NCBI GenBank assembly: GCA_043778225.1
Contig: JAYWGM010000013.1
Coordinates: 1 to 42,712 of the forward strand
Length of the DNA stretch: 42,712 nucleotides
Origin: Deinococcales bacterium
Lineage (GTDB): Bacteria; Deinococcota; Deinococci; Deinococcales; JAAFIG01
Direction of reading: 5' to 3'
This document shows positions 27,137-30,808 of this stretch, piece by piece. The notes beneath the pieces are model-generated. The model saw nothing but the letters and a program-made list of their open reading frames with translations, had not been told where the DNA came from and did no database searches. The translations under genes and the position numbers were made by a program. Numbering within the stretch: position 1 is the stretch's first letter; each line of letters opens with the position of its first letter.

Positions 27137-27697
27137 ATGCCAAGAGTCGCCACCAACACCGAACCGCTAACCTTCGAGCAGTACCTGAAACTCGAGGAGC
27201 GTCAAGTCACCCGCCATGAATTTGTGGATGGTTTTATGTTCGCCATGGCTGGTGGTACAAAGTTTCATAACAACATTGCTGGGAATATTTTTATGAAAGC
27301 CAAACTGGCGGCTCGAGCAGTCGCCAATTGCAGCGCCTATATGGAAAATGTGAAAGTCCGCACGCCAAGTGGAATTGGCTACTATCCTGATGTGGTTGTG
27401 ACTTGCAATGATGATGTGACTGACTTACTGATTTATAATCCTTGCCTAATTATTGAAGTGTTATCGAGCAGCACCGAAGACATTGACCGAGGCGAAAAAC
27501 TTTTTAACTACCAGAAATGCTTGAGCCTGAAAATGTACGTGCTGGTGCGCCAAGATAAGAAGTTTCTGGAGATTTACAAACGCAATTTAGATGGGAAATG
27601 GGAATACAGTATTCTCGAGGAACATGGCACACTCGAGTTTAGTTGTGCCGATTTTTCCATGACCGTAGAAGAAATATACGAGGACGTAACTTTTTAA
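27137..27697 (+). CDS. Uma2 family putative endonuclease
   Basis: RHEFVDG...AMAGGT..HN, YYPDVVVTC, PCLIIEVLS.ST...DRGEK..Y; TATACT 6 nt before ATG 27137. Confidence 0.93.
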   Translation: MPRVATNTEPLTFEQYLKLEERQVTRHEFVDGFMFAMAGGTKFHNNIAGNIFMKAKLAARAVANCSAYMENVKVRTPSGIGYYPDVVVTCNDDVTDLLIYNPCLIIEVLSSSTEDIDRGEKLFNYQKCLSLKMYVLVRQDKKFLEIYKRNLDGKWEYSILEEHGTLEFSCADFSMTVEEIYEDVTF

Positions 27698-28344
27698 GTC
27701 TCGAGCAATGTTTCTAAATCCACCAAACCGATTTTTAAGGCATACAGCGCCGCTTGGGTACGTGAGCGCAAGCCAAGTTTTGCCAGTAAATTCGAGACAT
27801 GGGTTTTGACAGTCCGTTCTTCGATGCTAAATTCTCGAGCAATCAGTTTATTGGCAAAACCCTTGGCAATCAGCCGCAGCGTTTCGGTTTCACGCGGCGT
27901 TAAAGATTCAGACTTATCTGGCGTTTGGACTTCGCGCATTAAACGTTTGGCGGCTTCGGGCGAAAGGCGCACTTCGCCGCGTCCAGCCGCATGAATCGCC
28001 TCGACCAATTGGTCGGCATTGGTGTCCTTTAACAAGTAGCCCATTGCGCCAGCTTGCATTGCACTCATCACTTTGGCATCCTCGAGAACGCTGGTCACGG
28101 CAATCACTTCAACTTCGGGGAAACGGGTTTTGATTTCGCGGATAGCCGTGATACCATCCATCACGGGCATCAGTAAATCCATCAGCACCACATCTGGCAA
28201 AAGTTCTGCCACCATCTCGAGGGCAACCGCGCCATTGTTCGCTTCTCCCACGACCTCGAGTTGATCGTCGAGTGCCAAAAACATTTTTAAGCCCTGACGC
28301 ACCACACTATGGTCATCGCACAGCAATAAACGGGTTTTTTCCAT
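27694..28344 (-). CDS. NarL/LiaR family response regulator
   Basis: DDH.VVRQGL, PDVVLMDLLMP, GYLLK, LTPRE, NK.IA, TVKTHVSN LuxR-type HTH. Confidence 0.95.
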   Translation of the reverse strand: MEKTRLLLCDDHSVVRQGLKMFLALDDQLEVVGEANNGAVALEMVAELLPDVVLMDLLMPVMDGITAIREIKTRFPEVEVIAVTSVLEDAKVMSAMQAGAMGYLLKDTNADQLVEAIHAAGRGEVRLSPEAAKRLMREVQTPDKSESLTPRETETLRLIAKGFANKLIAREFSIEERTVKTHVSNLLAKLGLRSRTQAALYALKIGLVDLETLLET

Positions 28345-28446
28345 GAACTCGAGTATGCCACAAATGACAGACAGCAGCATCCAACCAAAGGACTGAATTC
28401 GTAGTACAAAAGTTTCTCGAGACGCTCATGCTCATAGCCAAACTCA

Positions 28447-28860
28447 CTAGGCTTGTGCCAACGGTGTTTTCGGGGCCTCCTCGCGCATCAGTTGCCTAAA
28501 TTCACGCATCGCACTGGCAAGTAAATCTATTTGTCTGCCCAGCACCGGAAAGACATCCTCGATTTTGCTATAAAAATTTTCGATTGCGACACAGACATCG
28601 CTCTGCATGATGTAAAACTTAGCGGCTTTATAGTCGGTGTTCAGTTTCATAATCACTTTGGTGGCACGTTCGGTTTCTTCTTCGGACTCGAGTTCCCAAA
28701 AATACGGAACCATCAGCCGAAAAAAAGTTTCGTCTTTTTCGTTGGCAAACAGCACAAAATTGATCCGTTCGTGCTTAAAAGAAATATCTTGATCGTTATC
28801 AAGTTCGGGGCGATAGCCTTGTTCGTTGAGCCACGCCATATAGGTTTCGGTCTTGGTCAT
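28447..28860 (-). CDS. YbjN-like (chaperone/sensory transduction regulator fold) protein
   Basis: WL.EQGYRPELD.DQDI.FK.E, FFRL, LN..YK.AK pattern. Confidence 0.65.
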   Translation of the reverse strand: MTKTETYMAWLNEQGYRPELDNDQDISFKHERINFVLFANEKDETFFRLMVPYFWELESEEETERATKVIMKLNTDYKAAKFYIMQSDVCVAIENFYSKIEDVFPVLGRQIDLLASAMREFRQLMREEAPKTPLAQA

Positions 28861-28892
28861 GGGTCATAGTCTGGCGTGTTTTGGGCGATACG

Positions 28893-29615
28893 TCAACTGC
28901 TTTTGATTGACTCAATGGCTCGAGTTACAATTTTTCGTAAACTAGAACTTAAATTCAATTGCAACACCGCTTCAAAGATAGGTTGCGCTCGAGCATCAGT
29001 ACAGCTTTGAGTTAGGGCGTAAATTGCAGCAAAGCGCACTTTGATATTGTCGTCCTCCAGTGCAATACAAAGTAAATCCGATATGAGGTCATCGGGATTT
29101 TCTAAATTCGAGATTTTACAAGCCTCACAAGAAATCGCATGAATTGCCGCCCGACGAACTCGAGGAATTGGGTCTTGCATCAATTTTCGCAACATCGGTG
29201 TACAACTTTTGTCTGCCATATGGTCAAGTGCCATAGCACAATCAAAGCGCACTCGAGGCTTAACATGAGTGCAGCCAAGCAATAGCCCATCGACTAAAAT
29301 TCTAAGCACACCAGCTTCAAAGGCATAATTTCGGACACTTAGAATTTCATGCAAAGGCATCAGCGCAAATCTCGAGCCAAGTGCCACCCCATCCAAAGCT
29401 GCAAACTCGAGTAATTCTTTGGTCAATACACTTGGTCTGGAAAGCCGAATGGCTTTGGCTTCGACAAAGTTTTTCAAGCGAGTCCAACTTGGGAAACCAT
29501 AGCTTTGGGCTAAAGAAAATTGGGCTTGGGCTAAAGTGATTTTTTCAAGCGACTGTTTCTTCTTTGCCTGATTTTTCAAATGCTCTAAGTTCGGCTTGGA
29601 TGGTAATTTTGACAT
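28893..29615 (-). CDS. Protein with N-terminal LPxxPNLEHLKxQAK...LAQAQ..LA..YGFPSW domain plus HEAT-like repeats
   Basis: Motif read directly from the translation; HEAT-like PRVRFDCA.AL, PRVRRAAI.AI, KVRFAAI.AL; SD GAAAGGGG. Confidence 0.85.
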   Translation of the reverse strand: MSKLPSKPNLEHLKNQAKKKQSLEKITLAQAQFSLAQSYGFPSWTRLKNFVEAKAIRLSRPSVLTKELLEFAALDGVALGSRFALMPLHEILSVRNYAFEAGVLRILVDGLLLGCTHVKPRVRFDCAMALDHMADKSCTPMLRKLMQDPIPRVRRAAIHAISCEACKISNLENPDDLISDLLCIALEDDNIKVRFAAIYALTQSCTDARAQPIFEAVLQLNLSSSLRKIVTRAIESIKSS

Positions 29616-29728
29616 AACGCCCCTTTCAGTTATCCCGTGTCTGCAAACAGGTATGAAAGAAGGCGAATCAAATTGTTAAAACCGTGGGCTATGCCCTATT
29701 CGCAGACTGAACGCGAACGGCTTCGCGC
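29616..29728 (-). ncRNA. Candidate structured cis-regulatory leader RNA (pseudoknot)
   Basis: 7 bp hairpin at 29728-29711; 13 bp helix 29707-29695/29651-29639 with two G-U pairs; loop segment 29665-29654 complementary to the SD region 29628-29618. Confidence 0.65.
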
Positions 29729-29848
29729 TGGTTCTATTTTTACTTTTCATCTGGGATTTATGCAATGCGCCAAAAAGCGTATTACTCCAGATATAACGTG
29801 TTGTTTTGAAAACAATTTTCTAACCCAAAGGCAAAGCATAATAAAAGC

Positions 29849-30808
29849 ATGAAAGCCATTCGTGTTCACGCCACCAACCAGATGCAACTCGAGGAAATCC
29901 CAACCCCAGAACCAAGTGCGCTCGAGGTGCGGGTCAAGCTCGAGTACGCTGGCTTAAACTTTATTGATATTTACCAACGCAGTGGGGTTTATAACGTTCC
30001 AATGCCATTTACGCTGGGCATGGAAGGGGCTGGGGTGGTGGATGCACTTGGCAGCGGTGTCACCGATTTTGAAGTTGGGCAGCCTGTGGCGTACACCATG
30101 ACCCGTGGCAGTTATGCCGAGTATGCGGTTGTGCCAGCCCAGAATCTGGTCGAAATTCCGCGTAAAATCTCGAGTCAACAGGCGGCGGCTATCATGTTAC
30201 AAGGCATGACGGCGCATTATTTAGCCTTGAGCACCTATAAACTCGAGGCGGGCGATACAGCGCTGGTTCATGCGGCGGCAGGTGGCGTTGGGCAGTTGTT
30301 GGTGCAAATTGCCAAGCGCTTTGGGGCAAAAGTAATCGCCACCGTTGGCAGCCTCGAGAAAGCCGAATTGGTGCGGGCGCTGGGCGCAGACCACGTGATT
30401 ATCTATACCCAAACCGATTTTGAAAGCGAAGTTAAAAAACTTGCCCCCGATGGTCTTGAGGTGGTTTACGACAGCGTTGGTAAAGATACGTTCACCAAGG
30501 GGCTAAACTTATTAAAACCACGCGGCATGATGGTTTTGTACGGTGGCTCGAGTGGGCAAGTCGAACCTCTGGATTTACAAGTGCTGAGTGCTAAGGGAAG
30601 TCTATTTGTGACCCGTCCGACCCTTGGGCAGTACATCGCCGACCGCGACGAACTCGAGTGGCGGGCTGGTGAATTGTTTGATTGGCTCGCCAATGGGCAG
30701 CTAAAACTCGAGATTGACCGTGTGTTCCCGTTGTCCGAGGTATCGGATGCTCACGCCTACATCGAAGCCCGAAAAACCAAAGGCAAGGTTCTGCTCGAGA
30801 TACAATGA
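29849..30808 (+). CDS. qor: NADPH:quinone oxidoreductase (zeta-crystallin/MDR family)
   Basis: [58 protein letters not shown]. Confidence 0.93.

Follow-up and report, generated by a model that had tools for sequence, protein, structure and literature searches.

The leader RNA described here lies on the minus strand of the window, that is, the whole analysed stretch of 42,712 nt from a Deinococcales bacterium (assembly GCA_043778225.1, contig JAYWGM010000013.1, positions 1 to 42,712), where it directly precedes a gene coding for a HEAT-repeat protein. As judged from sequence comparison, it belongs to a class of cis-acting RNAs that is widespread, has so far not been catalogued and is absent from Rfam 15. 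The class is new and comes with a protein-domain partner that is both dedicated and portable, namely the N-terminal domain of the encoded protein (hereafter the N-domain), and the two together point to an undescribed RNA-protein control module.

The search of Rfam 15 with window positions 28800-30000 at E ≤ 10 returned only HOTAIRM1_5 (17 bits, on the other strand), a chance match, and that with 20 diverse leader loci at E ≤ 1 returned only a tRNA elsewhere in locus L087. It had been stated in a preliminary description of this DNA, made from the sequence without database searches, that the leader could not be assigned to any named riboswitch class, and this holds against Rfam 15; the collection of homologous leaders, covariance modelling and Rfam comparison which it had proposed yielded a conserved, covarying structure and no Rfam family. 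GCGAACAGG resembles the ZTP (pfl) riboswitch, but there is no match to RF01750 and the downstream genes are of the ankyrin, HEAT and similar types, not purine or folate genes. Full-text literature searches found no description of the leader RNA or of the N-domain, with one large supplement (PMC5737381) being outside their reach.

Structure and covariation of the leader RNA

The family was modelled from a MAFFT alignment (A4) of 77 non-redundant leaders, from which the covariance model R2 was built; run on 91 sources, R2 gave 89 matches, one per source. The parts of the leader, its predicted promoter and the gene behind it are listed below by window position, with the hairpins named P1 to P4, the two tertiary pairings PK1 and PK2, and the Shine-Dalgarno region abbreviated to SD.

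29613-29733, minus strand: entire leader RNA including the start codon (R2 match, 60.3 bits, E 4.4e-13)
29711-29728, minus strand: P1 hairpin GCGCGAA/UUCGCGU with the loop GCCG (sequence, single-sequence fold, inverted-repeat search)
29718-29721, minus strand: 5' strand of PK2, the P1 loop GCCG, pairing with CGGU at 29684-29681
29681-29684, minus strand: 3' strand of PK2, CGGU, starting one base past P3 (sequence and family pair columns)
29699-29711, minus strand: P2 mini-hairpin with a UUC/GAA stem (29711-29709 with 29701-29699) and the 7-nt loop AGUCUGC
29702-29707, minus strand: 5' strand of the kissing helix PK1, GUCUGC, in the P2 loop (conserved core of a 13-bp helix)
29639-29644, minus strand: 3' strand of PK1, GCAGAC, in the P4 loop
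29686-29696, minus strand: P3 hairpin GGGC-AUA-GCCC
29666-29680, minus strand: linker between the 5' domain and the SD hairpin, variable in length and sequence among relatives
29654-29665, minus strand: anti-SD strand CGCCUUCUUUCA (sequence, fold, inverted-repeat search)
29634-29651, minus strand: P4 hairpin CCUG/CGGG around the loop bearing GCAGAC (in the minimum free energy fold)
29618-29628, minus strand: SD region UGAAAGGGGCG, pairing with the anti-SD strand (sequence, fold, family covariation)
29760-29765, minus strand: predicted -35 box TTGCAT, 17 nt 5' of the -10 box; TTGCA is kept in the same-genus orthologs L002-L004
29737-29742, minus strand: predicted -10 box TAAAAA(T) (sequence reading)
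28893-29615, minus strand: open reading frame (ORF) of the HEAT gene, 240 aa, with its ATG at 29615 (ORF list)
29445-29615, minus strand: codons of the N-domain, aa 1-57, LPxxPNLEHLKxQAK…YGFPSW
28893-29444, minus strand: remainder of the gene, with the HEAT-repeat part (Pfam matches within aa 110-215) and the stop codon

The match to R2 is unique both in the 42.7-kb window and in the 4.03-Mb genome. The minimum free energy (MFE) of positions 29745-29600 is -41.4 kcal/mol (z = -2.45, 4 of 200 shuffles being equally good), and the MFE fold includes the P1 hairpin and the anti-SD:SD helix. All the stretches named in the preliminary description were found where it had placed them on the minus strand, including GCGCGAA-GCCG-TTCGCGT at 29728-29711 and the ATG at 29615. 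The pairing of GTCTGCGAATAGG (29707-29695) with CCTGTTTGCAGAC (29651-29639) that it had pointed out is present in the window as 13 bp with two G-U pairs (85% complementarity at the DNA level in the repeat search), although only the first 6 bp (GUCUGC/GCAGAC) are conserved in the family, with the rest overlapping P2, P3 and P4. The complementarity of CGCCTTCTTTCA (29665-29654) to TGAAAGGGGCG (29628-29618) was also confirmed, its core being recovered by the inverted-repeat search; the two helices do cross, and both the pseudoknot and the masking of the SD are backed by covariation. The GGG at 29636-29634, for which pairing with a CCC in the loop had been proposed, is paired in the family model with CCU(G) at 29651-29648 in P4 instead.

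Covariation was evaluated in two alignments, the counts being of sequences and not of independent events, with 15 rows coming from one genus. In the first of them (A5, 89 leaders), 91.3% of the cells are standard-paired, compared with 82.5% after shuffling (none of 500 shuffles reaches the observed value) and 40-53% with slid partners, and 26 of the 36 pairs show changes on both sides. The second (A7) consists of 20 leaders that the model picked out of whole genomes, 15 of them having entered without selection by pattern; it is more varied than A5, with 91.0% of the cells paired as against 80.2% when shuffled and 46-53% when slid, and both the kissing helix and P3 are 100% paired in it.

The stem changes in P1 are compensatory, the outer pair being CG in 42 leaders and GC in 23, and the 74% of paired cells recorded for this stem is too low a figure, because two loop-length classes are misregistered in the alignment and approximately 40% of the rows stand in a shifted register. 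In the family, PK2 is formed by the last three to four bases of the P1 loop, pairing with bases one position beyond P3 (GC 37, AU 21, CG 9, GU 5 and UA 2 in the pair columns). In P2, three stem pairs (UYC/GRA) enclose a loop of 7 nt (N-GUCCGC), and the stem is formed in 89 of 89 rows; its middle pair is CG in 79 and UA in 10, and UAC/GUA and CGA/UCG variants occur among the members found by the model. P3 consists of 4 bp and a 3-nt loop, with 99.7% of the cells paired in the family and changes on both sides at all four pairs in A7. The 4-bp P4 has 96.8% of its cells paired, with the inner pair being CG in 59, UA in 14 and UG in 7.

The P4 loop of the family reads GCGGAC and is complementary to the P2 loop, so that the long-range helix is a 6-bp loop-loop kiss. 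This helix, PK1, is paired in all 86 rows having both sides, and the search pattern constrained its 5' strand only. Swapped versions include GUCCGC/GCGGAC, GUCCAC/GUGGAC, GUCCGU/ACGGAC, GCCUGC/GCAGGC and ACCCGC/GCGGGU, the last of which was found in genome G365, and the pair GACCCGC/GCGGGUC was seen by eye before an actinobacterial gene missed by R2. The kissing loops differ even between paralogs of one genome (GUCCGC/GCGGAC and GCCUGC/GCAGGC in G367). Stacked on P4 is the anti-SD:SD helix of about 10 bp, nine of whose ten pairs change on both sides and 89% of whose cells are paired; it is present in 86 of the 89 leaders, the other three being truncated, with a mean duplex energy of -14.7 kcal/mol (n = 86). 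The joining nucleotides of the core, UCC-N, GG-AAA and the A after P3, are near-invariant. The leader shows two of the features by which riboswitches are recognised, a conserved covarying structure and an expression platform that includes the SD. An alternative "ON" pairing of the anti-SD strand with the SD-like GGAAAGGG in the 5' domain found no support, the duplex energy over 86 leaders being -9.1 kcal/mol compared with -9.0 kcal/mol for the reversed segment and -7.6 kcal/mol for shuffled ones.

In 70 of 79 related loci a TANNNT hexamer begins 25-30 nt ahead of the core pattern; it is nearly absent elsewhere in the 80 nt upstream. On account of this position the start of transcription is placed at the foot of P1, at a predicted position of about 29730, from which the 5' untranslated region (5' UTR) of the HEAT gene would be approximately 115-118 nt long.

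Distribution of the leader and its linkage to the N-domain

About 185,000 species genomes were scanned with a DNA pattern derived from the RNA core alone (J1/2, P2 and P3, with 14 fixed bases). At least 120 stretches match, compared with approximately four chance matches expected at even base composition by rough arithmetic, and 80 of these loci were fetched for gene context. Their record titles name Actinomycetota, Gemmatimonadota, Acidobacteriota, Pseudomonadota, Planctomycetota, Chloroflexota, Armatimonadota, Latescibacterota, Dormibacterota, one Flavobacteriaceae metagenome-assembled genome and Deinococcales, the leader RNA being found in records titled as at least 10 phyla. A same-strand ORF with the N-domain stands behind the RNA in 78 of the 80 loci, with its start 100-136 nt past the start of the pattern in 71 of the 78. 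The two loci lacking such an ORF (L041 and L046), as well as L104, have only the 5' half of the RNA left and look like deletion remnants. L100 is the single case in which the first gene behind the RNA lacks the N-domain. In L065 and L081, about 85 extra bases and a second SD are located between the leader SD and the start of the N-domain, with a 28-codon frame at the first SD, and the N-domain genes of L054, L092 and L097 are frameshifted or interrupted.

The linkage holds in both directions in whole genomes. All 16 RNA matches in five of these (30.7 Mb) abut an N-domain ORF, and the RNA precedes 16 of the 17 N-domain genes, the one gene without it having a partial domain match only; this bears out the statement in the preliminary description that such genes tend to carry similar leaders. 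Up to six leader/N-domain copies are present per genome. Five further genomes have four RNA matches, each abutting an N-domain ORF. These five come from a sampling performed from the protein side, in which the N-domain occurs in six of 121 evenly drawn Actinomycetota genomes, five of them new. In the five new genomes the model finds the RNA before four of the six N-domain genes, the fifth having a variant leader recognised by eye and the sixth (L191) a 3'-half-like RNA remnant only. When the ten whole genomes are pooled, all 20 RNA matches are located directly 5' of N-domain genes and there are no free-standing copies.

The same tie is seen within the phylum of the host, whose genome (4.03 Mb, 107 contigs) has a single copy of the N-domain. 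A protein search of 41 related genomes found orthologs in 10, its own genome included. The N-domain start and an alignable leader are present in four of the nine other orthologs, namely L002-L004 from the same genus and L006 from another genus, and the remaining five (L005 and L007-L010) are HEAT-only orthologs whose upstream region is short and unrelated, with no leader. L005 is a same-genus HEAT-only ortholog and the sole locus sharing the quinone oxidoreductase and YbjN-like neighbours of the window gene, from which it follows that at this locus leader and N-domain occur either jointly or not at all. The module-bearing orthologs L002-L004 are located elsewhere than in the window synteny (28447-30808).

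The first covariance model, R1, found exactly one copy in each of five out of 19 family genomes. An N-domain profile (A2) was positive in 13 of 364 genomes of the phylum, and with filters off R1 matched directly 5' of the N-domain gene in seven of nine new loci. It gave no match in L026, a gene fragment, or in L027, where a glyoxalase-like part is joined to the N-domain; the five HEAT-only loci yielded only noise (E > 2). All 12 leader-bearing genes of the phylum are orthologs comprising the N-domain and the HEAT part. The HEAT part of the leader-linked Deinococcales orthologs (window 28971-29288, minus strand; L020-L028) also keeps a Cys/His pattern RVRFDC…ALDH…C…HS.SC[DE]ACK, which suggests a metal site in a HEAT-repeat protein.

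The N-domain, its fusion partners and the neighbouring genes

A phmmer search with the N-domain alone (60 aa) retrieved 821 cluster representatives at E ≤ 1e-3 among 1.84 billion. The AlphaFold2 model from a 30-row alignment is a three-helix bundle (H10-24, H28-38 and H44-59) with a pLDDT of 82.6. Pfam gave nothing for the first ~100 residues of the window protein at E ≤ 1. The first ~58 profile positions of PF20066 Glyoxalase_8 correspond to the N-domain, and several homologs match positions 4-62 only; the window protein itself has no match to this profile at E ≤ 1. PADLOC matches concern the repeat parts only and none falls in the N-domain, and ESM Atlas returned only "hypothetical protein" clusters, below 0.9. 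Four proteins (P0011, P0004, P0010 and P0135) show a weak likeness of the N-domain to the first ~50 positions of NCBIfam NF004629 (PRK05973, "DNA helicase"), with E values of 2e-5 to 7e-3, far under the cut-off. LysR regulators have an N-terminal helix-turn-helix (HTH), and in P0135, which has a LysR substrate domain without HTH, the N-domain stands at the place where a LysR-type regulator has its HTH. The second half of the N-domain is tandemly repeated in some proteins (G364:C56, G368:C161 and G365:C207).

The domain had been described as widely fused to variable partners, which agrees with the 821 representatives and with the range of partners found: ankyrin, HEAT, glyoxalase-type, Clp_N, ClpS, DUF3471 and the LysR substrate domain. 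The window protein matches HEAT_2 (E 1.8e-13, 51 bits, cut-off 27.7) and HEAT (E 2.6e-11, 43.1 bits, cut-off 23.5). A Pfam scan of 52 of the 821 representatives assigned ankyrin to 22, HEAT to two, Glyoxalase_8 (first ~60 positions) to six, one of which also has Clp_N, DUF3471 to two, and ClpS and the LysR substrate domain to one each, leaving two weak other matches and 17 with nothing. Among the 78 leader-linked ORFs, most of which end at ~370 aa at the locus edge, there are 53 with ankyrin, 13 with HEAT, six of the Glyoxalase_8 type, one kinase and one with leucine-rich repeats. The downstream genes have no common metabolic, transport or signalling theme, the N-domain being the shared feature.

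No upstream neighbour of the leader loci is conserved across phyla, and there is synteny within the genus only. The YbjN-like and quinone oxidoreductase neighbours of the window gene are common to L005 alone. On the same strand as the HEAT gene lie a YbjN/type-III-chaperone-like gene (28447-28860, minus strand; sub-threshold in Pfam) and then a gene coding for a LuxR-type response regulator (27694-28380, minus strand). The YbjN-like gene begins 32 nt after the stop codon of the HEAT gene, and all three genes may be co-transcribed. The divergent quinone-oxidoreductase gene (29849-30808, plus strand) has CATAAT ending 6 nt before its ATG and looks leaderless (29831-29851), which agrees with the description of this region in the preliminary account as largely leaderless.

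There are 274 copies of the hexamer CTCGAG in the window and about 24,880 in the whole 4.03-Mb genome, where the next commonest palindromic hexamer occurs 2,854 times. It is absent from the leader, as had been noted from the letters, with none in 29616-29848. That the CTCGAG-free stretch 29406-29888, covering the N-domain codons, leader and intergenic region, might show the 5' module to have been imported recently was considered and rejected, its 482-nt gap being only the 11th longest in the window.

Proposed mode of action

The explanation preferred here, which on comparative grounds we would give about an even chance of being correct, is SD-sequestering translational control with the encoded N-domain as the effector, that is, autoregulation. 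The 5' domain of the leader is compact, with the P1 loop tied to the tail behind P3 and P2 presenting its 7-nt loop, and the kiss between the P2 and P4 loops joins it to the SD hairpin. With the SD masked, the initiation of translation would be controlled by the leader RNA, and the N-domain of the gene's own protein would read the folded 5' domain and the kissing complex, creating feedback. This feedback is probably negative, as free protein would lock the masked state and protein engaged with a target via its C-terminal repeats would no longer do so. The leader and the N-domain would move together as a single 5' unit to which various C-terminal domains can be attached. Autoregulation is preferred because the downstream genes share only the N-domain, because loss of the domain is accompanied by loss of the leader, and because the N-domain stands in the HTH slot in P0135.

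A more specific form of this proposal is advanced only tentatively, namely a portable RNA-protein feedback cassette in which the first ~55 residues of the nascent or free protein would bind the double pseudoknot at the 5' end of the mRNA coding for them and keep the ribosome-binding site locked, the grip being lost once the fused repeat domain is occupied. Any fused binding domain would then make a self-producing titration sensor, and paralog-specific kissing loops would keep the folds private.

Several observations weigh against autoregulation by the N-domain. Foldseek found no significant relative of the N-domain model, the best being homeodomains (E ~0.6, TM 0.40), and the best VIA-align result is Z 4.9 (sigma-28 and Tn4430 transposase), both being under the level that would mean more than a common three-helix arrangement; the motif itself can be read as having a likeness to HeH/SAP, and the comparison with PDB sequences gave 0 matches at E ≤ 10. 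With no significant relative among solved structures, that the N-domain binds RNA is something we infer. The domain carries only a slight net positive charge (mean +2.5 over the matched stretch, positive in 71% of 77), the rest of the N-domain proteins being net negative. L027, with its glyoxalase-like part, and G366:C465 have no leader, and in L100 (1144-1600) the first ORF behind the leader is a FliG_C-like one of 64 aa, the N-domain gene starting 431 nt beyond the core pattern. By itself the anti-SD:SD hairpin is already stable, at its mean of -14.7 kcal/mol. RNA and domain could co-occur because they descend together as a 5' gene module, with no contact between RNA and protein, and a shared small-molecule signal would yield an equal co-occurrence.

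Known autoregulatory leaders include the E. coli rpsO/S15 pseudoknot, the L1, L10 and L20 leaders and the thrS operator. Like these, the element is a structured 5' UTR RNA of the presumed ligand's own gene, with the ribosome-binding site involved, pseudoknots, and an RNA and a protein family tied one to one across species. Unlike them, it belongs to a protein that is neither ribosomal nor a synthetase, the presumed binder being a small N-terminal module on many C-terminal domains; a genome may have as many as six paralogs, none of the leader families in Rfam matches, and the protein is not known to have a primary RNA target in the cell for the leader to imitate.

The modular RNA-binding regulators, such as the ANTAR domain proteins and the CAT-PRD antiterminators BglG, SacY and LicT, resemble the proposed arrangement in combining a small helical module for nucleic-acid binding with a variety of partner domains and in having a structured leader motif as their defined target. 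They differ in that they antiterminate the leaders of other genes via two-hairpin (ANTAR) or RAT targets, whereas here the RNA always lies in cis to the gene itself and would act on the SD, and the N-domain has no sequence or fold similarity to them by Pfam, Foldseek and VIA-align.

Mycobacterial ClpC2 is reported to repress its own transcription via the DNA palindrome CGTCAAC-n5-GTTGACG, and its mRNA is suggested to be leaderless (PMC10030653). It is a Clp_N decoy in which ligand capture by the C-terminal domain lifts the repression of its own gene (PMC10030653, PMC13345244). The likeness consists in a ligand-capturing decoy that relieves its own repression, and some N-domain proteins also carry Clp_N or ClpS; ClpC2 is a functional analogy only. 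The leaderless mRNA suggested for ClpC2 differs from the predicted ~115-nt leader here, and the solved N-terminal domain of ClpC2 was not detected as a relative of the N-domain (0 PDB sequence matches). A ClpC2-type operator was looked for and rejected, there being no match within 3 mismatches in 29600-29860 and two matches elsewhere in the window at chance level.

The strongest alternative to autoregulation is a riboswitch for a small molecule or an ion, in which the 5' domain and the kissing complex would form the aptamer, the ligand would set the locking of the SD hairpin, and the N-domain genes would be the regulon, with the N-domain making no contact with the RNA. The architecture is typical of translational riboswitches, having a pseudoknotted conserved core, near-invariant joining nucleotides and an SD-masking platform. 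Pseudoknot riboswitches that sequester the SD are known in the SAM-II, preQ1-II, guanidine-III and ZTP types, with which the leader shares the pseudoknotted 5' UTR element, the conserved junction nucleotides and the SD masked when folded, and its two subdomains with a variable linker recall ZTP. Several copies with an identical core per genome and the L100 leader standing before a non-N-domain ORF also speak for a riboswitch. Unlike the known types, however, the leader has no Rfam match at the thresholds given above, its SD hairpin lies outside the conserved 5' domain and is linked to it by a loop-loop kiss, and the genes behind it share a domain, not a metabolism. No enzyme, transporter or pathway is common to the downstream genes, which share the N-domain only (78 of 80 loci), and neighbouring genes are not conserved. 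A near one-to-one tie to a protein family is characteristic of protein-binding leaders such as the ribosomal-protein leaders, and the near one-to-one tie to the N-domain follows that pattern. A riboswitch is for these reasons considered rather unlikely.

Less probable still is control by another trans factor or a physical signal, be it a separate RNA-binding protein, a small RNA, the ribosome or S1 (at a standby or entrapment site) or temperature, with the N-domain merely marking a co-controlled gene family. As the SD hairpin is stable without a ligand, an opener is needed, which would suit such a factor, and the anti-SD strand resembles the 16S 3' end, which reads CCUCC, in many members. Yet no partner gene beside the module is conserved across phyla, a simple thermometer would need no two pseudoknots with conserved unpaired nucleotides, and the RNA was never found apart from N-domain genes in the ten whole genomes. 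A non-regulatory role, in which the stable 5' mRNA structure would form a ribonucleoprotein with the N-domain bringing the variable C-terminal domain, or would serve mRNA stability or localisation, is very improbable: the compact, 5'-terminal, double-pseudoknotted fold, its strict pairing with the N-domain and the swappable C-terminal domains are in line with it, but the SD is always part of the structure, pointing to translational control, free-standing RNA copies are absent from the ten genomes, and the three copies consisting of the 5' domain only look like deletion remnants.

If confirmed, the module would bring a further structured RNA class with two tertiary pairings and an unusually clean genetic partner, a protein domain for which Pfam has no model of its own. 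Thousands of proteins of the "hypothetical", ankyrin, HEAT and glyoxalase types would thereby gain a function for their N-terminus, namely the recognition of nucleic acid with feedback, and the leader together with 55 codons would make a compact natural part for autoregulated expression. Were the ligand a small molecule, the leader would all the same count as a candidate orphan riboswitch whose regulon is defined. With the many compensatory variants now available, the question of RNA-protein contact is open to a direct test.

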